From: Dehalococcoidia bacterium
Lineage (GTDB): Bacteria; Chloroflexota; Dehalococcoidia; Lucifugimonadales; Australimonadaceae
Direction: 5' to 3'
Length of the DNA: 64,000 nt
NCBI GenBank assembly: GCA_965248455.1
Contig: OZ252105.1
Location: 1,754,737 to 1,818,736 of the forward strand
The notes beneath the pieces were generated by a model that was given only the letters and a program-made list of their open reading frames with translations, was not told the origin of the DNA and searched no databases. Position numbers and translations under genes: made by a program. The first letter of the stretch is position 1. Every line of letters begins with the position of its first letter. Below are positions 519 through 54,461 of this stretch, in pieces.

Positions 519-1927
519 TACAAGGACTCCAGGAAGCGCAGCAGCGCGGCCCGCTCGTCCGCGGAGAGCAGCGTGAACGCGTCACGGGAAGCCTGTGCCT
601 CGCCGCCGTGCCAGAGGATGGCCTCCTCCAGACCGCGTGCTCGCCCGTCGTGCAGGAACATCGTGTGGTCGCTCACCACCGGCACCAGCCCGATGCCCCA
701 GAGCGGCGGCGTGCGCCACTCGCTGCCAACGGCTTGGCCTTCCTGATGCTCGTCGGCCAGCCCCTCTCCCATGTCGTGCAGGAGCAGGTCGGTGTAGGGA
801 TAGATGGTCTGCCCCCGCAGCGGGCGTACCGGACGCGACGCGTGCGTTACGTGCTGTGGCGTGTGGCAGGCGATGCAGTTGGCCTGCGCGAAGAGTTGCG
901 CGCCTTCCCGCACCTGCGGGTCGTCCATGTCGCGCATGGCGGGCACGGCGAGCGTCTGCACGTAGAACGCGACGGTGGCAAGGCGTTCGTCCTCGACCTC
1001 AGGTTCCCCTCCATTGGGAGCGTCCCGGCAGGCCTGTTGCGCGTCCGAACAGTTCTGGTTCGGGAAGAGCACCGAGGTGACGCCGATATCGCCGAGGAAT
1101 GCCCCCGCGGACTGCTGTTCAACGGTGGGCTGACCCGCCTTCCACCCGAACCGGCCTAATGCGGCGTTCCCGCTGCGCAGGTCAGTGACCATGTTCGGGC
1201 GGCCCGATATGCCGTCGTTGTCCACGTCGTCGGGATCTGCTGCGGCCAGGATGCGCTCCTCCGGGATCGCTTCCAGCAGCCCCATGCCGATGGTGGCGGG
1301 CGCGATGCGCGGCGACATCGTAACGTCCGGGTGCAGCGGGCCGAAGGCCAGCTCTGCTATCGAGTACGTGGGCTTGCGGAGCGAATACGGCGTCCCGTCC
1401 GGGTACGTACCCGCTACTTCCTCGTAACGGATGCTGATGCGGCCTTCAGGGGGAACGCGGAGGATGCCGCGATCCTGCAATTGCCCGCCGTACACCGGGT
1501 CGTCCTCGGGGCCGTCTGGGCCGGGCACGCTAAGCCGCAGCAGCAGACCGCGCTCCGGATCGTCGTCGTTCTCAGGCGGTTTCGCGCGTCCGTCGTGGGT
1601 GTGACATGACGCGCAGGCGAGGGCGTTGAACGTCGGACCCAGGCCGTCGCGCGCCGTCGTGGAGGCCGGCGCGGTAACCCAGTTCTGATTGAAGAAGCTG
1701 TCTCCCACCTCGAACCTGCGGCGCTCCTCGTTCGTAAGATTGCGCGCCGACAACTCGAATGCGTTGGTGCCGCTGCTGAACGCGGTCGTCTCTCCGCCAA
1801 GCGCCTCTGCGAACAGCAGCGACTCGTCTATCCGATTGCCCTGCGAGCAGGCAGCGACCGAGGTGGCCAGCAGCGCTGCTGCGATGAACATCGCCGCCGC
1901 CGCCAGCCACCTCGGTACGCACTTCAT
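518..1927 (-). CDS. DUF1111-family di-haem cytochrome c (imelysin-associated thiol oxidoreductase/peroxidase-like) lipoprotein
   Basis: ORF 518..1951. Two CxxCH haem motifs (CASCH, CIACH). The likely start is MKCVPRW..., with lipobox VAAC. Adjacent to an imelysin gene. Confidence 0.85.
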   Translation of the reverse strand: MKCVPRWLAAAAMFIAAALLATSVAACSQGNRIDESLLFAEALGGETTAFSSGTNAFELSARNLTNEERRRFEVGDSFFNQNWVTAPASTTARDGLGPTFNALACASCHTHDGRAKPPENDDDPERGLLLRLSVPGPDGPEDDPVYGGQLQDRGILRVPPEGRISIRYEEVAGTYPDGTPYSLRKPTYSIAELAFGPLHPDVTMSPRIAPATIGMGLLEAIPEERILAAADPDDVDNDGISGRPNMVTDLRSGNAALGRFGWKAGQPTVEQQSAGAFLGDIGVTSVLFPNQNCSDAQQACRDAPNGGEPEVEDERLATVAFYVQTLAVPAMRDMDDPQVREGAQLFAQANCIACHTPQHVTHASRPVRPLRGQTIYPYTDLLLHDMGEGLADEHQEGQAVGSEWRTPPLWGIGLVPVVSDHTMFLHDGRARGLEEAILWHGGEAQASRDAFTLLSADERAALLRFLESL

Positions 1928-4317: not shown

Positions 4318-4530
4318 ACTCCTGCCCCCTGCGCTGTGCCCTGACTTCGCCTTCTAGTCCGGGTTGCGGCGTGGAAGCATGCTCGCCGTCCAAAGCTTGG
4401 CCGTGATGCGCAGCTTCTCCCCGGAGGAGAGCCGCACGCGCTCGCGGTAGACATCGAAGCCTCGCTGTTCCATGCGGTCGAGCAGCCGGCTGTAGAGGCC
4501 ATGGAGGATCGCCGAGCACGCGCGCGACCG
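4318..4530. repeat. Direct repeat, left copy (hpnD 3' end plus 36 bp of downstream flank)
   Basis: 213 bp aligning without indels to 6946..7158 (offset 2628 bp), with 9 mismatches by manual alignment. Confidence 0.95.
4354..4530 (-). pseudogene. Orphan 3' fragment of a presqualene diphosphate synthase (hpnD-like) gene
   Basis: ORF 4354..4662 ends ...RSRACSAILHGLYSRLLDRMEQRGFDVYRERVRLSSGEKLRITAKLWTASMLPRRNPD. This is nearly identical to the C-terminus of the intact gene at 6982..7860. The upstream part of the ORF is unrelated. Confidence 0.85.
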
Positions 4531-6945: not shown

Positions 6946-7158
6946 ACTCCTGCCCCCTGCGCTGCGCCCTGATTGCGCCTTCTAGTCCGGGTTGCGGCGT
7001 GGAAGCAGGCTCGCCGTCCAAAGCTTGGCCGTGATGCGCAGCTTCTCCCCGGAGGAGAGCCGCACGCGCTCGCGGTAGACGTCGAATCCCCGCTGTTCCA
7101 TGCGGTCGAGCAACCGGCTGTAGAGGCCATGGAGAATCGCCGAGCACGCGCGCGACCG
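6946..7158. repeat. Direct repeat, right copy (inside and just downstream of intact hpnD)
   Basis: Pairs with 4318..4530. Confidence 0.95.
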
Positions 7159-8878: not shown

Positions 8879-9922
8879 TCACTTATCACGCGTGACGAAA
8901 TAATCCGCCATCGCCTGGATGCTCTCCTTCGCCTCGGACGGGAGCTGAAGCCCTTCGAGCGCATCCATCGCGCCGGAGGCTTGGCTGACCGCGGTCTGCT
9001 GCACAACCGCCTCGCTGTCGAGTTCAGCGAGCAAATCGAGAACGCGCTCGATGTCGTCGCCCGCCACCTCCTCCGCGGCGTAAGCGGTTCGGAGCCATTC
9101 GCGCTGCGCATCGTTCGCGCGTTGGAACAGGTGGACGATGGGCATGCTCTTCTTCTTGCGCTTGATATCGGAGCCGACCGGCTTACCCGTCGCCGCCGGG
9201 TCGCCCCAGATGCCGAGCAGGTCGTCGCGCACCTGGAATGCAAGCCCGAGCTTACGTCCGCACGCGCCGAACGCCTCCGCCGTCCTGGCGTCGCCGGTGG
9301 CCACCAGCGAGCCGAGGTACATGGCGCAGTCGATGAGCGCGCCCGTCTTGCGCGAGATCATGTCAAGGTAGGCGTCAGTCGTGACGTCGTCGGAGTCCTC
9401 GAAGGACATGTCCAGGTACTGGCCTTCGATCATCTCGACGTAGCGCGATGTCAGCGCGAGGGACGCCGCCATGACGGTGGACGCCGCAAGGCCGGTCTCC
9501 GACAGCGCCAGGAGCGTCTGATCGGCCACGACGCGCATCGCGTTGCCGGCGGCAATAGCCTCGTGGACGCCGAACACCGTCCACGCCGTCGACCGGCCTC
9601 GCCTTGTCGTATCCCTATCCTGGATATCGTCGTGGAGCAGTGAGAAGTTGTGGATAAGCTCCAGCGCCGCAGCGGCGGGGAGAGCGTCATGCCAGTCGCC
9701 GCCGTTGATCTCGCAGGACGCAAGCACGAGCACGGGGCGCAGCCCTTTGCCCGCGTCCTCGGCGGCGGGGTTGCCGTCGCGATCCTGCCACCCAAGGTGG
9801 TAGCGCAGCATGCTGAAGAGGCCGGTCTCGGAGTCGGGCACCGAGCGTCGAACCTGCTGCCTGATGTCAGCGGTGTACCGCTCGACGAGAGCTGCAACCC
9901 GACGTTCGGAGGAGACGGTCAA
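8879..9922 (-). CDS. Polyprenyl diphosphate synthase (FPP/GGPP synthase family)
   Basis: 347 aa. First aspartate-rich motif LLHDDIQDRD and second DDLLGIWGD. Confidence 0.9.
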   Translation of the reverse strand: MTVSSERRVAALVERYTADIRQQVRRSVPDSETGLFSMLRYHLGWQDRDGNPAAEDAGKGLRPVLVLASCEINGGDWHDALPAAAALELIHNFSLLHDDIQDRDTTRRGRSTAWTVFGVHEAIAAGNAMRVVADQTLLALSETGLAASTVMAASLALTSRYVEMIEGQYLDMSFEDSDDVTTDAYLDMISRKTGALIDCAMYLGSLVATGDARTAEAFGACGRKLGLAFQVRDDLLGIWGDPAATGKPVGSDIKRKKKSMPIVHLFQRANDAQREWLRTAYAAEEVAGDDIERVLDLLAELDSEAVVQQTAVSQASGAMDALEGLQLPSEAKESIQAMADYFVTRDK

Positions 9923-9948
9923 CCTGTCACCTGAGAGTGCCGCGTCGC

Positions 9949-11850
9949 CTATCCGGCTGCGGCTTCCCGATTCCTCTGCGGCGACGCTCCTGGGAAGAAG
10001 GCAGTCAGGATCTGCTGGACGATACCCTCTGCGTCCAGCTCCAACCGGTGCCTCTGAGCAGCCGCAGTGCTGTGCTCGATGAAAGAGTCAGGGAAGCCGA
10101 TGCGGTGAACCGACACATCCTCCATCCCAGCCTCGGCAAGCGCCTCGAGCACGGCGGAGCCGAACCCTCCAGCCAGCACGTTCTCTTCCACGGTAACGAT
10201 GCGCCGCGTGCTGCGGGCCGCGTCCAGCAGCAGTTCAGTGTCGAGAGGCTTCACGAAGAGCGGGTTCACGACGCCGCATACGATGCCGTACTCGGCGAGC
10301 TTGTCCGCCGCTTCCACAGCCGCGCTGCCCGGCTTGCCCAGAGCGAAGATAACGACATCGCGCCCCTCCCTGACCACCGCGCCGCGTCCGAGCGGCAGCT
10401 GCCGCAGGTTCTTGTCGAGCGGCGCGCCGGTGGCCGCGCCCCTCGGTATGCGGATGGCGAAGGGGCCCGGGTGCTTGTACGCGGTGTAGATGAGATGCTG
10501 CAGGTCGTTCTCGTCCATCGGAACCGCAACGATTGCGTTGGGGATGCACCGCAGGTACGAGATATCGAACGCGCCGTGGTGCGTCTTGCCGTCCTCGCCA
10601 ACGATACCGGCCCGATCGGCGATCAGCGTCACGGGCAGGTTCTGTAGGCAAACGTCATGCACGATCTGATCGAACGCCCGCTGGAGGAAGGTGGAGTAGA
10701 TCGAGACGAAGGGATGGAGGCCGGAGGAGGCCATGCCCGCCGCCATGCTGACGGCATGCTGCTCCGCGATGCCCACGTCGAAGACTCTGCTGGGGAACTC
10801 GTGCCGCACTTCCTCCAGCCCCGTGCCTTCGAGCATCGCCGCGGAGATACCGACGACGGATTCGTCGTCGCGCATGAGGCGCTGAATGGTCTGCGCGAAC
10901 ACCTTCGAGTAGGTGGGCGCTCCCGTCGAGGCCCCCAGAGGCGAACTTGGCTGGTGAAATCTGATGGGGTCGTCCTCGGCTGGCTCGTAGCCGTGCCCCT
11001 TGTGCGTCACAACGTGGATCAGAGGGACGGAGCCGGTGGGTATTCTGGCTTGCCGGAGCGTCTCTTCGAGCTGCTTGATATCGTGGCCGTCCACGGGACC
11101 GAGGTATTGGAATCCCAACTCGGTCCAGAACGTGGTGGGCACGATGATGCTGTCCAGCCCGCCACTGAACCTCTTGACGAGCCGGTAAACCATGTCGCCC
11201 GTAGGCACCCTCTTCGATAGCGCCTTCATGCGCCCGATCATCGCCTGGTACTCGGGGTGAGTGAGCACGCGTTTGCGCCAGTTGGTGAGGAAGCCGATGT
11301 TCTCGGAGATGGACATGCCGTTGTCGTTCAGAACGACAACGAACTTCTCCGGGTTGAGATGCACGATATTGTTCAGCGCCTCGAAGCTCGAGCCTGACGT
11401 CATCGCCCCGTCGCCCACCACCGCGATGGTCCAGGAGTCCGCCTTCCGGTTCGCCGCGCCTTGCGCTATGCCCAGAGCTATCGAAAGGCCCGTGCCGGCG
11501 TGCCCTGCCGCGAGAGTGTCATGTGGGCTTTCGCTCGGTTCCCCGAACCCGGACAGCCCGCCCTCCAGGCGGATGGCCTGGAACTCGTCGCGCCGCCCCG
11601 TCACCAGCTTGTGCGTGTAGCACTGGTTGGTCGTGTCCCAGACGATGCGGTCGATGGGGCTGTCGAAAACGCGGTGGAGCGCCAGCGTAATCTCAACGAC
11701 CCCCAGGTTCGACGCTAGGTGGCCGCCGCGCTCGGTTATCACAGAGATGATGGTGTCTCGAACCTCTTGCGCAACCTGAACCAGCTCCGCTCGAGTCAGA
11801 GCCTTCAGGTCGCTCGGTGCATCGATCTGGTCCAACAGACGGCTTACCAT
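9949..11850 (-). CDS. dxs: 1-deoxy-D-xylulose-5-phosphate synthase
   Basis: 633 aa. The N-terminus LLDQIDAPSDLKAL..., the GHAGTGLS TPP-binding region and the overall length are typical of Dxs. Confidence 0.95.
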   Translation of the reverse strand: MVSRLLDQIDAPSDLKALTRAELVQVAQEVRDTIISVITERGGHLASNLGVVEITLALHRVFDSPIDRIVWDTTNQCYTHKLVTGRRDEFQAIRLEGGLSGFGEPSESPHDTLAAGHAGTGLSIALGIAQGAANRKADSWTIAVVGDGAMTSGSSFEALNNIVHLNPEKFVVVLNDNGMSISENIGFLTNWRKRVLTHPEYQAMIGRMKALSKRVPTGDMVYRLVKRFSGGLDSIIVPTTFWTELGFQYLGPVDGHDIKQLEETLRQARIPTGSVPLIHVVTHKGHGYEPAEDDPIRFHQPSSPLGASTGAPTYSKVFAQTIQRLMRDDESVVGISAAMLEGTGLEEVRHEFPSRVFDVGIAEQHAVSMAAGMASSGLHPFVSIYSTFLQRAFDQIVHDVCLQNLPVTLIADRAGIVGEDGKTHHGAFDISYLRCIPNAIVAVPMDENDLQHLIYTAYKHPGPFAIRIPRGAATGAPLDKNLRQLPLGRGAVVREGRDVVIFALGKPGSAAVEAADKLAEYGIVCGVVNPLFVKPLDTELLLDAARSTRRIVTVEENVLAGGFGSAVLEALAEAGMEDVSVHRIGFPDSFIEHSTAAAQRHRLELDAEGIVQQILTAFFPGASPQRNREAAAG

Positions 11851-11890: not shown

Positions 11891-12178
11891 TCACCATTTC
11901 GAGGACTCTTCCGAGTAAACGTGGTCGGGCAATGAGTAGCGGATTCCCTCCTCGTCGTACAGTGCAGAATCGAGCAAGGACGTGAATCTGCTGAAGTTGG
12001 TATCTTCGCGGCGGGTCCGAAGCAGCTTGCTCAGGATCTCGCCATAACGATTTTGCAGCTTGAACCACGGGACAGCGCCAAAGGAGGACAAAGGCGGATA
12101 TTCCAGTGCATTCGCAGTCTTATTTCCGATGAGTCCGCGGGAGACGCGGGCGCTGATCCGAGCCAGACGTTCCGTCAT
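11891..12178 (-). CDS. Hypothetical protein (95 aa)
   Basis: ORF 11891..12241 trimmed to MTERLARIS..., which is preceded by GGGAGG. Local GC is lower than the surroundings. No recognisable domain. Confidence 0.4.
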   Translation of the reverse strand: MTERLARISARVSRGLIGNKTANALEYPPLSSFGAVPWFKLQNRYGEILSKLLRTRREDTNFSRFTSLLDSALYDEEGIRYSLPDHVYSEESSKW

Positions 12179-12297
12179 AGGGCAGTCCTCCCGTCTCCTT
12201 ATAACTGAGGCCGTTCCCAAGTACCGGAGGTATCGCTCCAACTACGCAGTCCCGCAATAATAGCACGCCGCCTGTCTCGCAGTGTCCAGCCAACAGA

Positions 12298-12433
12298 GCG
12301 ACAAACGCCCATTGCGCCGACGCCGCGCCAGCCCATACAGTGGTTGGGCGCGTCGTTACGACGAAATCGCCCCGTCGTTCCCGCGAAGGCGGGAACCTCG
12401 CCCTCGGCCCCATCGCCCGCATAGACGAGAGGC
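12298..12433 (+). repeat. A-H element copy (promoter-like module A plus hairpin H) feeding into the tRNA-like array
   Basis: GCGACAAACGCCCATTGCGCCGACGCCGCGCCAGCCCATACAGTGG, with TTGCGC at 12312-12317, a 17-18 bp spacer and ATACAG/TACAGT at 12335-12341. Hairpin GTTCCCGC-GAAG-GCGGGAAC at 12377-12396. Ends in GACGAGAGG, where the iterons start in other copies. Confidence 0.8.
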
Positions 12434-12436
12434 TGT

Positions 12437-12508
12437 GGGCATTAGCTCAGTCAGTTAGAGCGTCGCGTCCACATCGCGGAAGCCAGAGGTTCGAGTCCCT
12501 ACCGCCCA
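12437..12508 (+). pseudogene. Degenerate tRNA-like sequence (anticodon-loop TCCACAT, Val-CAC-like)
   Basis: The D-arm GCTC-AGTCAGTTA-GAGC is intact. Defects: a 1-nt deletion in the 5' acceptor strand, acceptor mismatches, C at position 33, and the same aberrant T-arm as the other copies. No TATACT promoter in front. Confidence 0.4.
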
Positions 12509-12692
12509 TCACCGCTATCGGCCCAGGACTCCTGACCCCTGCGCTGCGGTTCAATTCCGCCTTCGAGTGCAACAACGGGACTCCGGCAGCGACGTACCAG
12601 CCTGAGCCGAAGCGAAGGTCAGCGGCTCTTCTCCCTCCGAACATCACGGGGCACGGAGGCCGAGCCTCAGCAGACATGCGGACGTGAACCGC

Positions 12693-12722
12693 TGGACTGC
12701 CCTGCGAGGCCAACCCTATACT
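12693..12722 (+). promoter_or_regulatory. Putative promoter of tRNA-like copy 2 (TGGACT-N18-TATACT)
   Basis: TATACT at 12717-12722, 11 nt upstream of the tRNA-like 5' end. The same module precedes copy 3. Confidence 0.35.
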
Positions 12723-12733
12723 CGAAAGACTGT

Positions 12734-12806
12734 GTGCGATTGGCCCAGCTGGCTAGAGCGTCGCGTTCACATCGCGGAGGCCAGAGGTTCGAGTCCCTAT
12801 CGCCCA
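12734..12806 (+). tRNA. tRNA-like gene, anticodon CAC (Val), non-canonical T-arm
   Basis: Manual cloverleaf. Acceptor GTGCGAT/ATCGCCC pairs 6 of 7 (U2-C71 mismatch). U8, A14, G18G19 and A21 are present. Anticodon stem TCGCG/CGCGG with loop TTCACAT. The T-loop TTCGAGT has only 4 nt (CCCT) on the 3' side of the stem, which requires a bulged A51. Confidence 0.5.
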
Positions 12807-12990
12807 TCACCGCTATCGGCTCAGGGCACCTGACCCCTGCGCTACGGTTCAATCGTGCCTTCGAGTGCAACGAGGGGATCCCGACAGCGACGTACCGTCC
12901 TGAGCCGAAGCGAAGGTCAGCGGCTCTTCTCCCTCCGAACATCACGGGGCACGGAGGCCAAGCCTCAACAGACATGTGGACGTGAACCGC

Positions 12991-13020
12991 TGGACTGCCT
13001 CGCGGGGCCAACCCTATACT
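12991..13020 (+). promoter_or_regulatory. Putative promoter of tRNA-like copy 3 (TGGACT-N18-TATACT)
   Basis: TGGACT at 12991-12996 and TATACT at 13015-13020. Confidence 0.35.
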
Positions 13021-13031
13021 CGAAAGACTGT

Positions 13032-13107
13032 GCGCGGTTGGTTCAGTTGGTTAGAGCGTCGCGTTCATATCGCGGAGGTCGGCGGTTCGAGTCCCTACCG
13101 CCCGCCA
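13032..13107 (+). tRNA. tRNA-like gene, anticodon CAT (Met/Ile2-type), encoded CCA, non-canonical T-arm
   Basis: Acceptor GCGCGGT/ACCGCCC pairs 6 of 7 (C2-C71). Anticodon loop TTCATAT. T-arm GGCGG-TTCGAGT-CCCT again needs a bulge (C51). G73 is followed by CCA. Confidence 0.5.
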
Positions 13108-13156
13108 CTTCCAGCCTAAGACAGTCGTGGAATTCAACCCAAGTGGAGGCAAATAT

Positions 13157-14019
13157 ATGTCCATCGATGATAAATTGAATAGTATCTCCACTCTAATCGA
13201 GGTAACCACGAGCACTGGTACTTTTCGGGGAACGGGGTTCTTCTACAATCAGTATGCGCCCACGGACAAACAGGGGCTTCAATACCGTCACATTGACGCA
13301 ATGTGGGTTGTGACCAATCGTCACGTATTGCTGCCCGGGCAGCAGGGTGTCGCATTTGCACCTTCAGCAGTGACGCTAAATATTCGCAAACTTACTGAAT
13401 CAGGTTTTATGGTTTGGGAACCGATCAAGTTATCGGCCGAAGAAGTCGAGACCCTTGCACGGTTTCATCCAAATAGGGCTGTAGATGTCGCCGCCATCAA
13501 TATCCTGGATCACTTTATTGAACGGTTCAATTCCAGTGATAAATACGTCGCGCCACATGCGCTTTCAGTTAAGGATCTCCCAGGAGACAATAGCGCAGAT
13601 ATAGAAGTGGCAAGTGACGTAATTATAGTAGGGTATCCAAGAGGCTTTTATGACAAGGTCAATCTCTTCCCCATTGTGAAGTCGGGAATCGTCGCTTCTC
13701 GTTGGGGTGTTGGTTTCGAAGGTAACCCATACTTCCTAATTGATTCCAAGCTGTTTCCAGGCTCTTCTGGGAGTGTGGTACTTTCAAAGCCTAACGATCT
13801 AATGATTAAGAACGGGCAAGTATGTATGCCGCAGAAAAGCATTTTTCGCTTTTGGGAATCTTTTCGGGTGAGCCCCAGTTTGAGGAACCTCCAGTGGAGA
13901 TCGGTGATCTCGTTGTCACACATAAGATCGGCTTTAATCTTGGAGTTGTTTGGTATGGCGAGTTGATTGAGGAGGTCATTTGCCAAGGCGTCCCTCCGAG
14001 CCAGGCATTGGCACCTTAA
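13157..14019 (+). pseudogene. Trypsin-like (S1/Trypsin_2-type) serine peptidase, frameshifted
   Basis: ORF 13127..13966 has an internal ATG at 13157 after GGAGG. It carries GTGFFY..VVTNRHV (His) and FPGSSGSVV (Ser). The reading frame switches near 13810-13835 into ORF 13822..14019 (...LLGIFSGEPQF...GVVWYGELIEEV). The region is visibly lower in GC. Confidence 0.7.
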
Positions 14020-14129
14020 GAACGGTACGCGGTGGAGCGAGCGATACCCAACCTCCACCCGATGCGCTGCTGGCACGGATCCCAGCCTCCCGCCCTCGCG
14101 GACGCGACGGGTTCGCCGAGCGCAATCCT

Positions 14130-14488
14130 GCGACAAACGCCCATTGCGCCGTCGCCGCGCCAGCCCTTACAGTGGTCGTATGCGTCGTTACGACGAAGGC
14201 ATATCGTCGTTCCCGCGAAGGCGGGGACCTCGCATCCCTGCCCCACGCAGACGAGAGGAATGAGACTGAATGAAACTAAATGAGACTGTTTTAAAAGTTC
14301 GTCACTCCTGGCCACTCGTGATGAAGCCAACCAAGGCCACAGCGAGGCCACGCTGGCTCAGCGCGTACGAGTGAACGGAGACCCAAACGAGACCACCCCG
14401 GCCTCATTTTCAGCCTCCCGACTAGGAGTGAATGGGGACAGATAGAGCCAAATGAGTCCTTGATTTGAAATTTACCCCTGAGGCGGCC
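14130..14488 (+). repeat. Complete A-H-B-C element (copy R1)
   Basis: Module A is 14130-14200, with TTGCGC at 14144-14149, N17, and TTACAG at 14167-14172. H hairpin at 14209-14228. Iterons AATGAGACTG / AATGAAACTA / AATGAGACTG at 14259-14288. TTTTAAAAGTTCGTCACTCCTGGCCACTC at 14289-14317. Module C runs to GAGGCGGCC at 14488. Confidence 0.9.
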
Positions 14489-14544
14489 CCCTACAGGTCC
14501 TTTCTCCCTCGGAGGACGGCTAAGATGAGAGTGAAGCCCCCAGC

Positions 14545-14610
14545 GCGTCTACGAGAGGAATGATCGGAAATGAGAGGAAATGAGAGGAAATTAAAAGTTT
14601 GCCACTCCTG
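14545..14610 (+). repeat. Solo B module 38 bp upstream of the enolase-superfamily gene
   Basis: CTACGAGAGG, then iterons AATGATCGGA / AATGAGAGGA / AATGAGAGGA (14559-14588), then AATTAAAAGTTTGCCACTCCTG. Confidence 0.85.
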
Positions 14611-14647
14611 AAAGCCCCGGAAGCGCTATCTCCGAAGGAACACCACC

Positions 14648-15745
14648 ATGAAGATCACCCACGTCGAACCGATCCTAGTCGCCCTCCCCTATGAGGACGG
14701 CGGCCCTGAACGAGAGACGACGCCCGGCCACAGCAGCGAGACCGTCCTTTCGCTGTTCGTCAAGGTCGAGACGGACGAGGGCGTCACCGGTTGGGGAGAG
14801 GCCTTCAGCTTCGCCACCGTGCCGGTCACCATCCCCGCCATCGCCGATGCGGTCGGACCGCTCGCCATCGGGCAGGACCCAACCGACATCGAAGCGGTCG
14901 CCGAGGACCTGCGTCGGCGCTATCAGAACATGATGCGCGGAGGGCCGGCGCGCTTCGCGCTCTCCGCCATCGAGATCGCCATGTGGGACATCAAGGGCAA
15001 GGTCGAGGGCAAACCCATCTGGCAACTCCTGGGAGGCGCGCCTAGGGAAAGCATCGAGGCCTACGCGAGTATGTTCCGCTACCACGAACCGGCGGTCGTC
15101 AAACAGATCGCCGCATCCGCCTGGCAGCGCGGCTACAGGAAGATCAAGCTCCACGAGCGAACCGTCGAAGCAGTCGCCGCCGCCCGAGATGCCCTCGGAT
15201 CCGGCGTGCCGCTCATGGTCGACGTCAACTGCGCCTGGTACCCCGACGAAGCCATCTCAATGGCGCAGCAGATGCAGCCCTACGACATCGCCTGGCTCGA
15301 AGAGCCGGTCTCGCCCCCCGACGACTACGACGGCTTGGCGCGAGTCCGTCGCGAGGGCGGAGTCCCGATCGCCAACGGTGAGAACATCGGCAATCCCTAC
15401 GATGTCAGATGGATGGCTGCCCGGGGCGCAGTCGATATCGTGCAGCCCTCCGTGGTCAAGCACGGCGGCATCAGCGACATCATGCGCATGGTCGAGATCG
15501 CCGAAAGCGCAGGCATGCGCGCCGTCCCCCATTGCCCCTTTGTCGGCCCCGGCCTGCTGGCGACCATCCACATCATCGCCGCGATGAAGACCGAGACGCC
15601 CTGCGAACACCGCTACTGCGACCTCAAAGCAAGCCCGCTCGGCGATGCCGTCGCCGCCGTGAACGGTCGTCTCAGCGTGCCGCAGGGCCCCGGCCTCGGC
15701 GTCGACCCGGATCTCGCCATCCTGGAACGCTACCGGGTTCGATAG
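14648..15745 (+). CDS. Enolase-superfamily enzyme (mandelate racemase/muconate lactonizing enzyme family)
   Basis: 365 aa. KIKLH, the metal ligands DVN...EEP...ENI, and an N-terminal capping domain layout. Confidence 0.85.
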   Translation: MKITHVEPILVALPYEDGGPERETTPGHSSETVLSLFVKVETDEGVTGWGEAFSFATVPVTIPAIADAVGPLAIGQDPTDIEAVAEDLRRRYQNMMRGGPARFALSAIEIAMWDIKGKVEGKPIWQLLGGAPRESIEAYASMFRYHEPAVVKQIAASAWQRGYRKIKLHERTVEAVAAARDALGSGVPLMVDVNCAWYPDEAISMAQQMQPYDIAWLEEPVSPPDDYDGLARVRREGGVPIANGENIGNPYDVRWMAARGAVDIVQPSVVKHGGISDIMRMVEIAESAGMRAVPHCPFVGPGLLATIHIIAAMKTETPCEHRYCDLKASPLGDAVAAVNGRLSVPQGPGLGVDPDLAILERYRVR

Positions 15746-16474: not shown

Positions 16475-17659
16475 TCAGCCGCCCTGCGTTGCGCCGACCT
16501 TGGTTCCGAAGCAGCGCTCGGCGTTCTCCCAGAACAGCTTGCGCTTGGCATCGGCGTCAATGCTGTCCCAGCCAAGGACGATGTCGACGGAGTCAGGGAA
16601 CCGCGACTCGGCGTGCGGGTAGTCCGACGAGAACATCAGCATCTCGTCGCCGCAGAGGCTGTTGACCATCCGCACCATGTCCTCGCCCTCGTGCAGCACG
16701 ACTGCGGCGAAGAACCGGCCTCCCGTCGTGTACTCCCACATGGACTGCTTGAGGTCGTCGGCGACGTAGCCCATGTAGGTAACTTGATCCTCCATGCGCT
16801 TGGCCCAGAACGGTATCCAGCCGAAGCCCGACTCCAGGATCGCGAGTTTCAGGTCCGGGTGGCGATCCATGATCCCCGATCCGAAGAACGCCCCCACCGT
16901 GCGCATCGCTCCCCATGGATGCGACGCCGTCCGGCCCAGGAACGGATTGTCCCAGAGGTCGCGCTCGCCGGGGTAGCCCGACGCACTGCTGTGGTGAACG
17001 ACGGTCAGGCCCTGCCGGCTGGCCTCGGCCCAGATCGGCTCCAGATCCGGGTGGTCAATCGGGTAGTCGAGCGGCAGATGCACAGTCATCGCAGTCGCCC
17101 AGGGCGCGCCTTCCCAACGCCGCATCTCCGTAACCGACCCCTCGACGTCCCTCGACGTGGTTTGCAGCATCGACGTGAACCGCCCGGGATACCTGCCGCA
17201 GACCTCATCCAGGTAGGCGTGGAGCGCACGGATGAACGCCATGTCTACGTCCGGGTCTTCGTGCGACCCGAAGGCGTTGCAGACGAGGAACTGCGTATCG
17301 ACGCCCTCCCGGTCCATCTCCTCGATGCGTTTGTCGATCAGGTCATCCTCGACGCCAACGGTGGGGTAGATCCGGCCCATGAACTGCTGGAAATGGCGCT
17401 CCTCGCCCTCTCGCGGCCCGGCCTCGCCGAGGCGGCGCGCCTGCCGCTGGCCCCATCCCTCCGCGCTGCCGCCGAACCGGTACCAGTTCTTGAAAGGCTC
17501 GGAGAGCTTCTGCCCTGCCCTGCCGGTCTTCACCGGACGTTTGAACGGCTCGAACTCCGCCAGCCGCGCTCGATATGCGGGCTCGAGGTACTCCACGATC
17601 GTCTCCACCGATGGCTGAAAATGGGTGTCCGCATCCCATACGCGGTAGCCTGCTCTCAC
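16475..17659 (-). CDS. Amidohydrolase-2 (ACMSD-like metal-dependent hydrolase/decarboxylase) family protein
   Basis: ORF 16475..18166 trimmed to the GTG at 17659, preceded by GGGAGGGG. Shows VWDADTH at the N-terminus and ...SSDYPHAE near the C-terminus. The long N-terminal extension in the track is Arg/Pro-rich junk. Confidence 0.8.
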   Translation of the reverse strand: MRAGYRVWDADTHFQPSVETIVEYLEPAYRARLAEFEPFKRPVKTGRAGQKLSEPFKNWYRFGGSAEGWGQRQARRLGEAGPREGEERHFQQFMGRIYPTVGVEDDLIDKRIEEMDREGVDTQFLVCNAFGSHEDPDVDMAFIRALHAYLDEVCGRYPGRFTSMLQTTSRDVEGSVTEMRRWEGAPWATAMTVHLPLDYPIDHPDLEPIWAEASRQGLTVVHHSSASGYPGERDLWDNPFLGRTASHPWGAMRTVGAFFGSGIMDRHPDLKLAILESGFGWIPFWAKRMEDQVTYMGYVADDLKQSMWEYTTGGRFFAAVVLHEGEDMVRMVNSLCGDEMLMFSSDYPHAESRFPDSVDIVLGWDSIDADAKRKLFWENAERCFGTKVGATQGG

Positions 17660-17727
17660 GATTCCCCTCCCAGGACGACTGCCTCGCCATGACTCGATGT
17701 CAGCCGATGATACCTCACGACGCGGGG
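17652..17727 (-). promoter_or_regulatory. Conserved 76-nt leader/RBS/start module, copy 1 (amidohydrolase)
   Basis: Minus-sense sequence CCCCGCGTCGTGAGGTATCATC...CGAGTCATGGCGAGGCAGTCGTCCTGGGAGGGGAATCGTGAGAGC. It is duplicated at 20619..20694. Confidence 0.6.
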
Positions 17728-20580: not shown

Positions 20581-20618
20581 GGCTGGGAAACGTGCGGAAA
20601 AGCCGCTCTCGGTAATCC

Positions 20619-20694
20619 GCTCTCACGATTCCCCTCCAAGGTGACTGCCGCGCCACGACTCGGCGCCGGAGCGATGATACCCCACGACGCGGGG
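20619..20694 (-). promoter_or_regulatory. Conserved 76-nt leader/RBS/start module, copy 2 (lipoprotein)
   Basis: Same sequence family as 17652..17727. Here its GTG opens a 17-codon uORF (VRADYRERLFRTFPSLA*) whose stop overlaps the TTG start at 20580. Confidence 0.6.
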
Positions 20695-20818: not shown

Positions 20819-21199
20819 GGCCGCCTCAGGAGTGAAATTTCAAATAGGGGACTCATTTGGCTCTATTTGGCTCCATTCACTCCTAGCCGGGAGGCTGAAA
20901 ATGAGGCCGGGGTGGTCTCGTTCTGCTTTCCGGTCACTCGTACGCGCTGAGCCAGCGTGGCCTCGCTGTGGCCTCGTTTGGCCTCGGTTACGGATCCGTA
21001 GGCGGGGCTGGGAGTGGCCAAGAGTGGCGAAACTTTTAAAACGGTCTCATTTAGTCTCATTCAGTCTCATTCCTCTCGTCTACGCGGGCCAAGGATGCGA
21101 GGTTCCTGTCTTCGCGGGAACGACGAGGGGCCTTCGCCGTAACGACGCACACAACCACTGTAAGGGCTGGCGCGGCGACGGCGCAATGGGCAATTGTCG
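20819..21199 (-). repeat. Complete A-H-B-C element (copy R2), inverted relative to R1
   Basis: On the plus strand the order is C (20819-20995), B core GAGTGGCCAAGAGTGGCGAAACTTTTAAAA, iterons 21042-21071 (reverse complement AATGAGACTG / AATGAGACTA / AATGAGACCG), H at about 21095-21125, then A to 21199. Reverse complement of TTACAG at 21158-21163 and of TTGCGC at 21181-21186. Confidence 0.9.
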
Positions 21200-21380
21200 T
21201 GGGGTACGCGTAGGGGTTGGTCTCGCCTCTGCTCTCGTCGCCCCAAGGGGCAGTTATGCGAATTAGGGGTTTATCGGGTTTCGCTAAACCATCCTAAACT
21301 TCCTATAAACCCGTCACTCGCCTCGGTTGCCAGTTGTCAAAAGGAGGTCGTTCGATCCCTCGCCGCCATTAGGTGAGGCG

Positions 21381-22805: not shown

Positions 22806-22960
22806 GCGACAACAGCCTATTGCGCCGTTGACACTTCAACCTTTACCATCATTTGCATACGTCAGCCTGCCGCGCGGGCGGAACCTCGCATCACGAGGAA
22901 ACGGAACGAAATGGAACTGAATGGAACCAATTTAACAGTTTGCCACTCCTACGCACTCCT
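22806..22960 (+). repeat. A-H-B element copy (divergent)
   Basis: GCGACAACAGCCTATTGCGCC (TTGCGC at 22820-22825)...TTTACCA. Hairpin-like CCTGCCGCGCGGGCGGAACCTCGC. Iterons AACGGAACGA / AATGGAACTG / AATGGAACCA at 22900-22929. ATTTAACAGTTTGCCACTCC. Confidence 0.8.
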
Positions 22961-23181
22961 GAGAGTCTCACCACGCGTGGAATCGCATAGCAATGAGCAA
23001 GAACGAGCACGAGCTTCAGCAGGCGCGGGAATGGCCCCTTGTCTCTATCGTGTCCCTTCCAGAACGGATCCGGGTGCGGCACGAAACATCGGGCGCGTCG
23101 ACCTCAGCGAGGATACCCTGCGCGAGATGCGAGACGCAGGGCGACCGTGATCGTCGTCAGCCCGCGCGACGGGAGCGACCC

Positions 23182-26109
23182 CTAGCGCAGCGCTTCCGCC
23201 AGGTACTCGGCGACGTGGCGAGGGGTCTTGGACGTGAAGTGGCCTATCTGCTGGCGACAGGAGATGCCCGAGACGGCGACCGGCCAGCCGCGCTTCTCCT
23301 CCGCTTCGATCGCGGGGAAGAGCTTGAGCGCGCCCATCGCGTGAGAGATGTCGTAGTGCTCCTTCTCGAACCCGAACGTGCCCGCCATGCCGCAGCACGC
23401 CGAGTCGATCAGCTCCGGCTCGTAGCCCGCGACGCGCAACGCCTCCAGCGTCGGCCCTGCGCCCACAATCGCCTTCTGGTGGCAGTGCCCGTGCACCTGC
23501 ACCGAGGCCTTCCCGCCCTCCGCGAACGCCGCCTGCACCGCCTCCGGCTCGTCCTTGGCCAGCTGCGTGATCAGCTCGTCGAGCATCAGCGCCTGGCTCG
23601 CCACAGACTTTGACGCATCGTCGCGCAGCAACTCCGGGTACTCGTCGCGCAGGGTCAGGAGGCATGACGGCTCCGTGCCGACGATGAGCGTGCCGCGCTC
23701 CGCATACGGCGCGAGTACGTCCACGTTCGCCCGGGCCCAGCCCTTCGCCTTCGCGAGCTGGCCCTTGGAGATAAGCGGCCTACCACAGCATCCGCGCTGC
23801 GATTCGACGGTCACGTTGTAGCCCAGCGCTTCCAGGACGCGGACGGCAGCGTGGCCGACCTCCGGGTGCATGTACTCGGTGAACGTATCGTTGAAATAGA
23901 GGACGTCGCCGCGCGTCCCTTTCACCGACGGAGCGCGCCGCGAGAACAGCGAGGAGAACCTGCGACGCGCGAACCGTGGCAGCGGCCGCTTACGCGATAT
24001 GCCGAGCACGCGCTCAGTGATGAGCTTGGTGGCCGGCAGGCTGCCCATGAAGTTCGTCACCGGCGCGACCGCCTGCCCTATGCGGCTGAGGCGGGCGACC
24101 TCGCCGAACAGCCTGGCACGCAGCGGCACGCCGTGCTTCTCGTAGTACTTGCTGAGCACCTCGGACTTCAGCTTTGCCATGTCCACATTGGAGGGGCACT
24201 CCGCCTTGCAGGCCTTACACTCCACGCAGAGGTCCATCGTCTCGTAGAGCCGCTTGCCGGTGAGTTCCTCGGCGGGCAGCTTGCCGCTGATCACCATGCG
24301 CAGCATCGTGGCGCGGGCGCGGGTCGAGTGCTCCTCCTCCCGCGTCGCCATGAACGAGGGGCACATCCCCCCGTCGAGCTTGCGGCATGCGCCCTGGCTG
24401 TTGCACATCTCCACGTGGCCCGCGAATCCGCCGTCCTCGCTGAAGTCGAGGTACGTCGAAACGTCGAGCACCTCGACGCCGGGGCCGATGCGCAGATTCT
24501 CGCGGATGCCGGGCGTCTCGATGATCTTGCCCGGGTTCATGATCGAGTCAGGGTCGAACGTCTGCTTGAGCTGCTTGAACGCCTGGTACAGCTCGGAGCC
24601 GAACATCTTCTCCGTGAACACGCCGCGGACGATGCCGTCGCCGTGCTCGCCGGTGAGGCTGCCGCCGAACTCCAGCACGAGGTCGGAGATCTCCTCGGCG
24701 ATAGCCGCCATCTTCTCGACGCCCTCATGCTGCTTCATGTTGACGACGGGGCGGATATGCAGGCAGCCGGTGGAAGCATGGCCGTAGTAGGCCGCCACGG
24801 TGTCATACCGCGCGACGACCTCCTCGAACCGGCGCACGTACTCCGGCAGTTGCTCAGGGGAGACTGCCGTGTCCTCGACGTACGGGAGCGGCTTGGCGTC
24901 GCCCTTGAGGGCCATCGCCAGCCCAAGCCCGGCCTCGCGGAGCGCGTACCACCGCCGCTGCTGGTCGGGGTCGTTCGTGATCATCGTGGCGTAGCCGAGG
25001 CGGCGGCGCTCCATGTCCGCCTTGAGCGCTTCGAGTTTCGCCTGGACTTCACGGGGGGAATCACCGTAGAACTCGACGAACAGCAGCTCGCGGGGGTCTC
25101 CGATGAACTGGTCGAGCATGTGGCGGTAGCCGGGGTTCACCTTGCAGTTGTCGATGATCATGTGGCCGACGAGCTCGACGGCGGAAGGGCTGTGCTCGAG
25201 TATCGGCACCGACGCCTCCATACATTCGATGAGGTCGGTGAAGTGCAGCACGCCGAGTCCCTTATGCTGCGGCAACGGCACGAGGTTCACCCGCGCCTCC
25301 GTAACGGCGACCAGCGTCCCTTCCGAGCCGACGACCGCGCGGGTGAGGTTCATGGGGCCGCTGCCGGTGAAGTCGTCGAGGTTGTAGCCCATAACGCGGC
25401 GCAGGATGCGCGGGAAGCGTTGGGCAATCTCGTCGGCGTGCTCCCACGCCAGGCGGCGCGTCTCGCGGTAGATCGCGCCCTCCAGGTCGTTCTGCGCAAG
25501 CTTGTCCTCCAGCCCCTCGCCTACCGTGGGAGCGAAGTGGACGCGGCTGCCGTCCGACAGGATGGCGTCGACCTCCAGGATGTGGTCGAGCGTCTTGCCG
25601 TAGATCACGGAGTGCGGCCCGCAGGAGTTGTTGCCGATGCCTCCGCCGACAGTGGCGCGGGCGCTGGTGACGGGATCCGGGGCGTACATCAGCCCGTGCT
25701 GGCGCACAGCGGCGGAGAGGTGGTTGTTGACGATGCCGGGCTGCACCCGCGCCCACCGTTCCTCCGGCGAGACCTCCAGGACGTTGCGCATGTACTTCGA
25801 GAAGTCCATGACGATGGCGTGGTTGGTGGTTTGCCCCGCGAGCGCGGTGCCGCCGCCGCGAGGCATGACAGGCACGCCGTGCTCGCGCGCGACACGGATG
25901 GTGGCCTCCACGTCATCGGCGCTCCGAGGCACCACGGCGCCCACGGGCATCATCTGGTACATGGAGGCGTCCGTGGAGTACATGAGGCGGTTGTAGCGGT
26001 CCATCCGAATCTCGCCCGCGATCTGCCCGCGCAGCTTGTCGGCTATCGCGCTGACCTCGGACGCGGAGATGTTGGCGGCTTTACGCGCAGTCTCGTACAG
26101 CAGTGGCAT
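23182..26109 (-). CDS. FAD-binding oxidase fused to an Fe-S/CCG domain (GlcD-GlcF-type fusion; D-lactate/glycolate oxidase-like)
   Basis: 975 aa. N-terminal FAD_binding_4-type region (PRGGGTALAGQ). Central 2x[4Fe-4S] motifs (CNSQGACRK..., CVECKACKAECPS). C-terminal cysteine-rich CCG repeats (GCCG, ACCGMAG). Confidence 0.9.
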   Translation of the reverse strand: MPLLYETARKAANISASEVSAIADKLRGQIAGEIRMDRYNRLMYSTDASMYQMMPVGAVVPRSADDVEATIRVAREHGVPVMPRGGGTALAGQTTNHAIVMDFSKYMRNVLEVSPEERWARVQPGIVNNHLSAAVRQHGLMYAPDPVTSARATVGGGIGNNSCGPHSVIYGKTLDHILEVDAILSDGSRVHFAPTVGEGLEDKLAQNDLEGAIYRETRRLAWEHADEIAQRFPRILRRVMGYNLDDFTGSGPMNLTRAVVGSEGTLVAVTEARVNLVPLPQHKGLGVLHFTDLIECMEASVPILEHSPSAVELVGHMIIDNCKVNPGYRHMLDQFIGDPRELLFVEFYGDSPREVQAKLEALKADMERRRLGYATMITNDPDQQRRWYALREAGLGLAMALKGDAKPLPYVEDTAVSPEQLPEYVRRFEEVVARYDTVAAYYGHASTGCLHIRPVVNMKQHEGVEKMAAIAEEISDLVLEFGGSLTGEHGDGIVRGVFTEKMFGSELYQAFKQLKQTFDPDSIMNPGKIIETPGIRENLRIGPGVEVLDVSTYLDFSEDGGFAGHVEMCNSQGACRKLDGGMCPSFMATREEEHSTRARATMLRMVISGKLPAEELTGKRLYETMDLCVECKACKAECPSNVDMAKLKSEVLSKYYEKHGVPLRARLFGEVARLSRIGQAVAPVTNFMGSLPATKLITERVLGISRKRPLPRFARRRFSSLFSRRAPSVKGTRGDVLYFNDTFTEYMHPEVGHAAVRVLEALGYNVTVESQRGCCGRPLISKGQLAKAKGWARANVDVLAPYAERGTLIVGTEPSCLLTLRDEYPELLRDDASKSVASQALMLDELITQLAKDEPEAVQAAFAEGGKASVQVHGHCHQKAIVGAGPTLEALRVAGYEPELIDSACCGMAGTFGFEKEHYDISHAMGALKLFPAIEAEEKRGWPVAVSGISCRQQIGHFTSKTPRHVAEYLAEALR

Positions 26110-26226
26110 GCGACCATCCCTCTGGGGAAGTTATCCGGCCCGGAGCGTACCGGGCGCCCCTTCATATTACGACACCACCGCCATGTGGGGCTTGAATGTA
26201 TCTGCACAGACTGGCAGGCTATAGCC

Positions 26227-27135
26227 ATGGCACAAGCGGCGCTGGTTCCCCAATGGCCCCTTGACTCTGAAAACCCCCTCTTCGGAGGGCTACATACGAT
26301 CTACCACGCCGATGCGTTCGAGTGGCTGGAAGCGGCGCCACCCCATTCCATCCACGCAGTGGTAACGGATCCACCCTACGGGCTGGTCGAGTATACGAAC
26401 GCGCAGCTGGCCAAGCTCAGAGCTGGCTCCGGCGGCGTGTGGCGCATGCCTCCGGTACTTGACGGCTACAGGCGCAAACCAGTGCCGCGCTTCACGGTGT
26501 TGACCGAGGCCGATAAACAGAACCTACGAGGATTCTTCACGAGGCTAGCCTCTTCCCTGCTTCGCGTGCTGACACCCGGAGCACACGTTTTCATCGCTAC
26601 CAACCCACTGCTCTCTTACCTCGTTTACGAGCCGTTCATCAACGCCGGTTTCGAGAAGCGCGGGGAGATTATCCGGACGGTAACCACACTGCGCGGAGGC
26701 GACAGGCCAAAGAACGCGCACGACGAGTTCACGGACATCACCGTGATGCCACGATCCTCCTGGGAGCCTTGGGGCCTCTTTCGCAAACCCATAGAGGCTC
26801 GCGTACAAGACAACCTGAGGAAATGGAAAACGGGAGCGCTCCGCCGCCCATCCCCCAGTGAACCGTTCCGAGACCTCATCCAATCTTCTCCCACGCCGGC
26901 GCGGGAACGGGCGATAGCGCCCCATCCCTCATTGAAACCCCAGCATTTCATCCGGCAGATCACGCATGCATCCCTTCCCCTTGGCGAAGGGGTCATCCTC
27001 GACCCTTTCATGGGCGCCGGTTCGACAATCGCAGCCGCCGACGCCTTGGGACTGCACAGCATTGGATTGGAAATAAACGAGGATTTCTTCAACTTGGCCA
27101 GCAGGGCGATTCCTGCCCTAGGTGCTCTGGCCTAA
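26227..27135 (+). CDS. DNA methyltransferase, beta-class N6-A/N4-C (PF01555-like)
   Basis: This is the in-frame tail of the artefactual 1094-aa ORF 23851..27135, with the true start at MAQAALVPQW. Motif IV VVTDPPYG comes before motif I ILDPFMGAGST. Confidence 0.85.
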   Translation: MAQAALVPQWPLDSENPLFGGLHTIYHADAFEWLEAAPPHSIHAVVTDPPYGLVEYTNAQLAKLRAGSGGVWRMPPVLDGYRRKPVPRFTVLTEADKQNLRGFFTRLASSLLRVLTPGAHVFIATNPLLSYLVYEPFINAGFEKRGEIIRTVTTLRGGDRPKNAHDEFTDITVMPRSSWEPWGLFRKPIEARVQDNLRKWKTGALRRPSPSEPFRDLIQSSPTPARERAIAPHPSLKPQHFIRQITHASLPLGEGVILDPFMGAGSTIAAADALGLHSIGLEINEDFFNLASRAIPALGALA

Positions 27136-30914: not shown

Positions 30915-30969
30915 GGTACGAGCATGCGTTCAGAGACGACATTCCGGCAGTGGGCAGGGTCCGTAGACG

Positions 30970-37284: not shown

Positions 37285-37320
37285 CTCTCTCTTCCTCCTT
37301 TGGAATGTTCCCTTTGACGC

Positions 37321-37563
37321 TTAGCCCTGCATCACCGGCGCGGCCTCTATAGCCTGTGCGAGCTCCTCGCCGAACCGGCGCGCGCCCGCCGCGAGCGCGT
37401 CACGCTCCGCTGCGGTCAGGCCATCCGGCGCAGCCTTGCGCACGGCTTTCACCAGCCGCGCGCCGCTCTGCAGCACGTCCACGGCTTCCGGCGCCAGCCG
37501 GTACAGGTCGCTCACGACGCCGGCGGCACGCAATCCCACTCTCACTGCTTCCACGACCCGCAT
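37321..37563 (-). CDS. Hypothetical small protein (80 aa) between protease and capsid
   Basis: AAGGAGGAG RBS. Ala/Arg-rich and helical-looking. Confidence 0.4.
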   Translation of the reverse strand: MRVVEAVRVGLRAAGVVSDLYRLAPEAVDVLQSGARLVKAVRKAAPDGLTAAERDALAAGARRFGEELAQAIEAAPVMQG

Positions 37564-37757: not shown

Positions 37758-37773
37758 GACGGGGCAGGGGCTA

Positions 37774-51468: not shown

Positions 51469-54461
<2,993 letters not shown>

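Follow-up and report, generated by a model that had tools for sequence, protein, structure and literature searches.

A candidate lineage-restricted family of mosaic intergenic repeats built around a 10-bp minisatellite in a Dehalococcoidia bacterium

Short arrays of 10-bp units that each begin with AATG, followed by an AT-rich box and by repeats of the type GCCACTC, recur between the genes of a 64,000-nucleotide stretch of DNA from a Dehalococcoidia bacterium (contig OZ252105.1, positions 1,754,737 to 1,818,736; hereafter the window). The array together with its box and the repeats behind it is here called the B module. An earlier note on this DNA had singled out the copy at window positions 14259-14317 and had offered two explanations for the 6-nt cores, or words, that follow AATG: homogenisation within a copy by slippage or gene conversion, or a code read by a family of proteins or RNAs. 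The reading that we favour, and which we rate somewhat better than even, is that the arrays belong to a lineage-restricted family of mosaic interspersed repeats whose B module carries a 10-bp minisatellite and which is maintained mainly as selfish or neutral DNA. The first of the two explanations is supported by a comparison of close strains, which revealed arrays of two versus three units at the same loci, joint changes of words in several units, a crossover inside the box and the absence of modules from one strain. The code found no support, considering that one orthologous gene is preceded by different words in different strains, that stacks of different words stand before a single gene, and that one word class is found before unrelated genes.

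Structure of the B module and its excess over chance

The B module consists of four parts, namely a degenerate leader unit (GACGAGAGG or GGACGATCGG), 2-4 tandem 10-bp units with the consensus AATGRRACNR (AATG-[A/G/C]-[A/G]-A-C-N-[A/G]), an AT-rich unit WWTTAAAAGT and 1-3 units of the form nnGCCACTCC. The flagged array at 14259-14288 (Table 1) is followed by TTTTAAAAGTTCGTCACTCCTGGCCACTC. CACTC repeats are indeed present behind the AT tract, as the earlier note described, with the correction that the same 10-bp phase as in the AATG units extends across the AT box and the CACTCC units. Units of 9 bp appear now and then in decaying copies.

These arrays are far too frequent to be a product of chance. 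The pattern AATG-N6-AATG-N6-AATG, with at most one mismatch, occurs 12 times in the window compared with 0.06 expected, and the 19-mer box quoted in the earlier note, with at most three mismatches, occurs five times compared with 0 expected. Tandem Repeats Finder (TRF) reported period-10 arrays at every site that the note had cited, and a sequence-only profile made from 19 aligned modules detected seven strong copies (58-71 bits) and one degenerate copy in the 64-kb window, a density of approximately one copy per 8 kb. Both the phased 10-bp units and their presence at multiple intergenic sites can thus be regarded as real.

The description of the box as invariant did not hold. Against the quoted 19-mer, the box of the flagged copy itself has two differences, and no more than about 10 columns in the alignment of the 19 copies are invariant; the T that closes the AT box (AAAAGT) is near-invariant. 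Homogenisation within copies, on the other hand, was confirmed: the identity of the 6-nt cores is 0.72 within arrays compared with 0.44 between arrays (17 independent arrays), and none of 20,000 permutations gave a within-array identity as high as that observed. The cores are not free words, as identity between arrays is 0.44 rather than 0.25, position 7 of the unit is A in 71% and position 8 is C in 73% of units, and approximately five word classes (GAGACT, GCAAC, GGAAC/GGAAG and GAGCGG/GAGAGG) recur at unrelated loci.

Turnover between close strains

Five long-read environmental assemblies were used as close relatives, two of which were found via Dxs (98% identity; L006 and L007), two via the enolase-family protein (98%; L035 and L036) and one via an IS110 transposase (100%, rounded; L020). 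All five carry modules. Orthologous loci were compared in strains whose flanking gene is 97-98% identical.

At two orthologous loci the number of units differs between strains, as in a variable-number tandem repeat (VNTR) or minisatellite: the array before the enolase-family gene has three units in the window and two in L035, and the array before the amidohydrolase gene has three units in L035 and two in L036. Words change as well. In the short array before the enolase-family gene they read ATCGGA / GAGAGGA / GAGAGGA in the window, three times GAGCGG in L006, and twice GAGCGGA plus GAGAGGG in L007, so that the change from GAGAGG to GAGCGG hits several units together. Larger rearrangements have breakpoints at the box. 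The amidohydrolase module of L006 (L006_789) is chimeric: it joins parts of two L035 modules, the crossover point falling within the box, and approximately 290 bp were lost. L036, whose protein is identical to that of L035, nevertheless lacks both R1 (the flagged copy of a longer element described below) and the short module before the enolase-family gene; their place is taken by an A module (see below) and a decayed module, together with a truncated tRNA and its TATACT promoter (9670-9975). These are fused to the leader of the enolase-family gene directly after the position of the box in the other strains. The presence or absence of modules between strains is therefore attributed to crossover between copies rather than to clean insertion.

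The mean pairwise identity among four strains is 0.97 for the R1 5′ module, 0.93 for both the A module and the R 3′ module, and 0.79 for both the R body and the short array, with 0.95 at third codon positions of the adjacent gene. The short array thus evolves faster than synonymous sites (0.79 versus 0.95), and the conservation between orthologous loci that the earlier note had looked to as a sign of more than slippage is missing there.

Mosaic context and distribution

The B module never stands alone, its settings being the R element, an A module bearing a repetitive extragenic palindrome (REP), a triplex motif, or stacks of further modules. At R1, R2 and R3, an A module of approximately 140 nt is followed by a B module that opens an R element of approximately 220 nt, whose 3′ end is a second iteron module composed of AGGAGTG, three AATG/AATA units, an AT tract and CACTCCTGAGG. 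The three R copies align with a mean column identity of 74%. The R body contains GGCCTCATTT, whose reverse complement is the iteron unit AAATGAG(G/T)CC; the arrays therefore resemble one arm of a REP-like palindrome that has been amplified in tandem.

The A module is laid out as GACAAACGCCCATTGCGCC...CCCTTACAGTGGTTGTATGCG...CGTC-REP hairpin...GACGAGAGG. Its copy at 12290-12432 abuts a tRNA-Val gene (12436), and the other copies abut an iteron module. Between A modules of the relatives lie varied gene cassettes, with DUF433, MMPL/MPAB, or AAA_15 plus DUF4276. Directly 5′ of many modules in the relatives, there is also a TMECO-type intrastrand-triplex motif (CCCTCGCCC...GGGAGAGGGTTAGGGTGAGGG). 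It is this TMECO part only that Escherichia coli matches (5337 of 5426 genomes, most records at 90-95% identity); the iteron and box part had no match in the E. coli genomes searched, and the B module itself does not have the TMECO arrangement of a C-rich 9-mer, a loop, a G-rich 9-mer, a 3-nt loop and another G-rich 9-mer. A single gene may be preceded by a stack of as many as four modules at spacings of 150-190 bp. Overall, the A module, B module, R body, 3′ B module and TMECO motif recur in varied orders at at least 10 loci, which is the organisation of a mosaic like BOX or the bacterial interspersed mosaic elements (BIMEs).

The profile detected 21 strong copies in approximately 148 kb from the window, L006, L020, L035 and L036, and none in approximately 156 kb that comprised more distant relatives (loci with Dxs at 92% and 87%, and loci at 91% and 89% for the enolase-family gene downstream of the short array) together with four contigs rich in insertion sequences (ISs) from another sample. 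The relative with Dxs at 92% has one variant array, with AATGGCAC three times after AGGAGT. Exact-pattern scans of 185,579 GTDB species-representative genomes, of JGI metagenome contigs and of IMG/VR returned chance AT-rich matches or none, and a blastn search with the R1 element returned no match among the plasmids of PLSDB. As far as these sequences can tell, the family is young and narrow, and restricted to close relatives.

Mode of evolution, proposed role and points against the favoured reading

The strain comparison shows the 10-bp array to be a minisatellite, in which whole 10-bp units come and go and changes extend from unit to unit. Homologous crossover in the conserved box swaps arrays between copies, and deletes or duplicates the DNA between two modules. 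The words are therefore markers of subfamilies and of recent homogenisation, and not addresses. The family itself would persist for the most part as selfish or neutral repetitive DNA, its copies marking intergenic sites prone to recombination. A function, if there is any, would most likely lie in the DNA itself: in a host genome of 64% G+C, the module is a patch 5′ of mostly accessory genes that is rich in AT, melts easily and is moderately curved. Such a patch could offer a nucleoid-associated or architectural protein a place to land, or could resemble an upstream promoter element in its action.

Several observations do not fit this reading well. The R1 5′ array is near-unchanged across four strains (0.97). 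Within an array, the units agree throughout at positions 5 and 8 (0.96 and 0.91), and positions 9-10 keep a recurring unit order, CGA/CCA/CTG; this is odd, as plain slippage predicts neither the coherence of positions nor the order of units. Placement is also unusual. The module lies 5′ of a gene at all 10 independent loci; it is co-oriented with the genes in all five tandem-gene contexts, the other five loci being divergent and none convergent (these counts rest on gene calls, and the chance probability of approximately 0.002 is a rough estimate). REPs are typically found at 3′ ends or between convergent genes. A placement so unlike that of REPs and BIMEs suggests selection, or an insertion bias tied to transcription. 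With regard to an architectural role, predicted curvature is raised (module median of 45 degrees versus 28 degrees for 52-bp tiles), but composition-matched shuffles often match the modules. Intrinsic curvature was hence set aside as an explanation, AT content largely accounting for the value.

Promoter, binding, RNA and origin readings

The position of the modules brings up the possibility, in our view unlikely, of a portable non-canonical promoter or promoter-enhancing cassette. In such a cassette, a -10-like or UP-like role would fall to the AT box, and a weak -35 element would be supplied by the middle unit's AATG (aTGnnA), 17 bp upstream of AAAAGT; transcripts would start near CACTCC. A promoter would be expected where the modules are found, that is, always 5′ of a gene and in the direction of that gene in tandem contexts, and the end of the box lies 40-44 nt ahead of two start codons. 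The near-invariant terminal T of AAAAGT is in line with this role, as is the lack of a canonical promoter on the own strand of ORF 22993 (an open reading frame) in the intergenic region that it shares. In L036, moreover, the tRNA-type TATACT promoter replaces the module at approximately the same distance from the same gene, which resembles a promoter swap. However, host promoters are canonical: those of the 23S rRNA gene (TTGACA-17-TATACT) and the Fic gene (TTGAAA-17-TATAAT) both score 11/12 and those of the tRNAs read TGGACT-N18-TATACT, whereas a sigma-70 scan gave no site in any module and the best manual fit reached approximately 7/12. Modules vary in how many CACTCC units they have and in how far they lie from the gene, one copy lies within the apparent prohead-protease/capsid operon, up to four modules are stacked before one gene, and the arrays change at or above the neutral rate. 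Other promoter types were rejected by eye: no GG-N10-GC of sigma-54 was seen; AAAAGTTT resembles the TAAAGTTT of sigma-28, but no GCCGATAA follows; TGnAAC units lie 13 or 23 nt from CGTC, not the 16-17 nt of an extracytoplasmic function (ECF) type, and most copies have no CGTC; and the TAnnTTTG of Bacteroidetes promoters is not conserved.

The exact 10-bp phase and the invariant AATG core raise the question of whether the arrays are direct-repeat sites, one per helical turn, of a multimeric DNA-binding protein, the word classes being read by paralogues; candidate binders would be an OmpR/PhoB-type winged-helix regulator, an MraZ-like ring or a nucleoid protein. The consensus TGnAAC is similar to the half-sites of winged-helix proteins, the vocabulary comprises only about five words, and position 5 does not change between the units of one array (0.96), unlike other positions, which drift. 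Nevertheless, the words at orthologous loci of close strains differ and are independent of gene class, the same amidohydrolase gene having GGAAG, GAGCGG and GCAAC modules. The number of units is unstable, the module is absent before the same gene in L036 and in the relatives at 89% identity, and no candidate binder gene is linked to the modules among the Pfam-scanned neighbours. No match to the integration host factor (IHF) site WATCAANNNNTTR was seen by eye. We consider such binding sites very unlikely. The stronger form, in which the modules would be a novel type of portable regulatory cassette, a lineage-specific multimeric protein or paralogue set would read one unit per turn and the word would set the regulator, is given a low probability; it is kept alive, at the same low level, by the sharing of one word by all units and by the uniform 5′ placement and co-orientation (10/10 and 5/5).

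A role as RNA, either of the module as an element of the 5′ untranslated region or of the R element as a small RNA, is likewise improbable. Here the repeated CACUCCU would take the part of the anti-Shine-Dalgarno sequence, its partners being GGAG-type ribosome-binding sites or an internal AGGAGUG. The co-orientation with genes means that transcription would run through the module in one sense; the R2 3′ iterons are flanked by AGGAGTG and CACTCCT, an inverted pair that is perfect over 7 bp; GGCCTCATTT pairs with AAATGAGTCC 40 nt away in both R1 and R2; and GAGGCCA-NNN-TGGCCTC followed by ATTTT resembles a weak terminator. In the small-RNA version, a discrete transcript of approximately 100 nt ending at GGCCUCAUUUU would be expected. 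On the other side, R1 folds no better than its shuffles (z = -1.3), and an alifold consensus of five copies gave an unfavourable covariation term with three of 61 pairs compensated, the power being limited at 5-10 copies. By inspection, changes in the hairpin arms of L006 and R3 are not compensated. The iterons are complementary to the box only with the GAGCGG word, Rfam gave no match (the best being FtrB with 18 bits against a gathering score of 66), and the R body is the fastest-evolving segment. Pairing of GAGCGG with CCGCTC was rejected, as CCGCTC boxes also follow GGAAG and GCAAC arrays and there is therefore no covariation; nor was there covariation in a pairing of the leader GAGAGG with CCACTC. 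Mini-ORFs were also considered, since ATG occurs in every frame and some copies have a 7-codon ORF ending at the TGA of the third unit; this ORF is not conserved in the GCAAC and GGAAC copies.

Helically phased direct repeats with an AT-rich tract resemble in form the systems found at origins, partition sites, transposon ends and arm-type recombinase sites. The earlier note had raised this comparison, and an IS110-family element does adjoin R3, yet an origin, a plasmid-type partition site, a transposon end or an arm-type site is highly improbable. Seven to eight copies are present in 64 kb, compared with the one or a few loci per replicon expected of origin iterons. Six DnaA-box-like matches were obtained versus 4.2 expected. 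One of them is near an array (31033, one mismatch), where it abuts the degenerate copy at 31027; the flagged module and the remaining six modules have none. Terminal inverted repeats were not found, and the two iteron modules of the R element are direct rather than inverted. No Rep, ParAB/Par or integrase (Phage_integrase) gene was present among the Pfam-scanned neighbours of the window modules, and the IS110 element is bounded at approximately 60947-62137, outside R3. A miniature inverted-repeat transposable element or other transposon end was rejected because terminal inverted repeats are lacking and the strain differences reflect crossover, not clean insertion.

Copies in the window and neighbouring features

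The coordinates of the modules and associated motifs are collected in Table 1.

Table 1. B modules, A modules, R elements and TMECO-type motifs; positions refer to the window unless a relative is named
Feature	Position	Strand	Sequence or words	Context and support
A module	12290-12432			
A module	14120-14258	+	CGTC-tagged REP hairpin GTTCCCGCGAAGGCGGGGAC, end GACGAGAGG	directly 5′ of iterons; repeat family D7, 88% identity
Flagged array, three 10-bp units	14259-14288	+	AATGAGACTG / AATGAAACTA / AATGAGACTG	sequence, pattern scan, TRF
AT-rich box and two phased CACTC units	14289-14317	+	TTTTAAAAGT; TCGTCACTCC, TGGCCACTC	box scan, module alignment
R element body, copy R1	14318-14421	+	10-11-bp CGAGGCCAC-type units and imperfect GAGGCCA/TGGCCTC hairpins	
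R1 3′ iteron module	14422-14484	+	AGGAGTG + GAATGGGGAC AGATAGAGCC AAATGAGTCC + TTGATTTGAAATTT + ACCCCTGAGG	
TMECO-type motif, degenerate	14490-14540	+		
Short-type module	14550-14628	+	AATGATCGGA AATGAGAGGA AATGAGAGGA AATTAAAAGT TTGCCACTCC TGA	40 nt upstream of enolase-superfamily gene 14648-15745; profile 66 bits
R2 3′ iteron module	20830-20890	-	AGGAGTG AATGGAGCCA AATAGAGCCA AATGAGTCCC ... TTTCACTCCTGAGG	pattern scan
R2 5′ module	21007-21081	-	GAGACT words	upstream of CARDB gene; profile 66.5 bits
A module	21073-21220	-		
A module, partial	near 22830-22890			
GGAAC-word module	22894-22969	+	GGAAC words	upstream of ORF 22993-23613; profile 63.4 bits
Degenerate module, no AT box	30968-31031	-	AATGAATCAG AATGAATCAA AATGAGACAG	profile 20 bits
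GGAAC/GGAAG-word module	31194-31270	-	GGAAC/GGAAG words	upstream of amidohydrolase gene 30054-30914; profile 61.5 bits
A module, partial	near 31290-31345	-		
Two-unit module	37647-37724	-	AATGAGCGGA x2	between same-strand prohead-protease (Peptidase_S78) and HK97-type capsid genes, apparent operon; profile 57.9 bits
TMECO-type motif, degenerate	37707-37740	-		
A module, partial	near 50855-50890			
Partial R body and degenerate 3′ module	50930-51110	+		upstream of 23S rRNA promoter; repeat family D15
R3 5′ module	62319-62397	-	GCAAC words	profile 71.4 bits
TMECO-type motif, degenerate	62425-62470	-		
A module	62640-62815	-		
TMECO-type motif in L006	~735-775			
TMECO-type motif in L035	~13590-13640	-		

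The IS110-family IS next to R3 spans 60947-62137 (minus strand; transposase 60972-61931) and follows a REP-like hairpin directly 3′ of R3. In L020, an identical IS (~9770-10985) lies 3′ of a different R copy, which indicates that R is the neighbourhood of the IS and not its end; that R forms part of the IS110 element was also ruled out by the boundaries of the latter. IS110-family elements are known to target REPs, and the element found here seems to target this repeat neighbourhood. Its 5′ non-coding region gave a weak match to Rfam sX15 (61968-62091, plus strand, E = 0.0017).

The tRNA-Val gene beside the first A module begins a tandem array of tRNA-Val, tRNA-Val and tRNA-Met (12436-13106) with a period of 298 bp and low tRNA scores of 33-39 bits, in which a TGGACT-N18-TATACT promoter stands in the spacers before the second and third genes. 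It lies in a stretch of lower GC content (0.555 at 12001-14000) beside a trypsin-like peptidase gene, and may be part of an island. In the region of the 23S rRNA gene (51257-54613), the 51 kb that precede the gene hold no 16S gene, the downstream side gave no 5S match, and a tRNA-Met gene follows 78 nt after the 23S end. This tRNA-Met gene, the TMECO motif and MR_MLE homologues of approximately 62% identity that are named Alphaproteobacteria are faint hints of Proteobacteria. The genes for the prohead protease and the HK97-type capsid protein (35956-38469, minus strand) are separated by approximately 490 bp and may represent a prophage or an element similar to a gene-transfer agent. Two DNA methyltransferase genes (23851-27135, encoding 1094 amino acids, and 28059-28910) are found near a Fic-domain gene in a stretch flanked by modules, which may be a restriction or defence island.

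Two further duplications were observed in the window. A direct repeat of 213 nt, 96% identical, is present at 4318-4530 and 6946-7158, 2.6 kb apart, in the squalene/phytoene-synthase region. A leader of approximately 83 bp is duplicated at 17643-17725 and 20610-20692, before the amidohydrolase and CARDB genes, respectively; both copies are approximately 81% identical to the same L006 leader, and a 32-nt core is 88% identical between the window copies. L006 lacks the CARDB gene, which is consistent with a deletion between leader repeats.

Significance and comparison with known repeat systems

The repeats described here would add an undescribed family to the interspersed repeats of bacteria, from a lineage known here only from assembled environmental contigs. 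They offer a clear example of REP hairpins, triplex motifs and a phased minisatellite that are reshuffled by slippage and crossover, and this reshuffling alters what lies upstream of accessory genes between near-identical strains. In genome scans, such arrays can mimic origins, partition sites and regulator sites, and they could be used as strain-typing markers. If the 5′ placement and co-orientation were functional, the modules could represent a natural system of exchangeable upstream cassettes; were these regulatory, slippage and box recombination would rewire the expression of accessory genes between strains.

BOX of Streptococcus pneumoniae is similar to the B module in being a modular intergenic repeat with an inner module whose tandem number varies across loci and strains. 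It has the structure boxA-boxB(n)-boxC, with a boxB of 45 nt that is not in helical phase, and forms stable RNA folds. Unlike the B module, BOX has neither an AT box nor a CACTCC array, and the sequences are unrelated. The likeness to REPs and BIMEs lies in the CGTC-headed palindrome CGTCGTTCCCGCGAAGGCGGGAACG of the A module beside the iterons and in the mosaic of short modules that makes up the region, whereas the B module is a direct-repeat array 5′ of genes and not a palindrome. Staphylococcal STAR elements and repeats of the VNTR and mycobacterial interspersed repetitive unit (MIRU) type are also interspersed direct repeats with a strain-variable number of units and slippage-type evolution; they differ in unit sequence, length and architecture, the strict 10-bp phase and the AT box being specific to the B module family.

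TMECO intrastrand-triplex repeats were reported to mark places where intergenic DNA is often rearranged between close strains (Holder et al. 2015, PMC4666352). The loci studied here are rearrangement hot spots too, and a motif of this type stands directly 5′ of many modules, but E. coli shares this part alone. A period of 10-11 bp, a core in each turn and an AT tract are features common to OmpR/PhoB boxes, MraZ boxes, plasmid iterons, UP elements and phased A-tracts. The present arrays differ from such phased protein sites in that no linked regulator, Rep or Par gene was found, copies are many, and both units and words are unstable. The B module matched nothing in the collections and libraries searched and, to the extent that these are representative, the family is undescribed. 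In kind, its closest counterparts are BOX, the BIME/REP mosaics and STAR-type VNTRs, and the motifs that neighbour it, the CGTC-tagged REP and TMECO, are already known.

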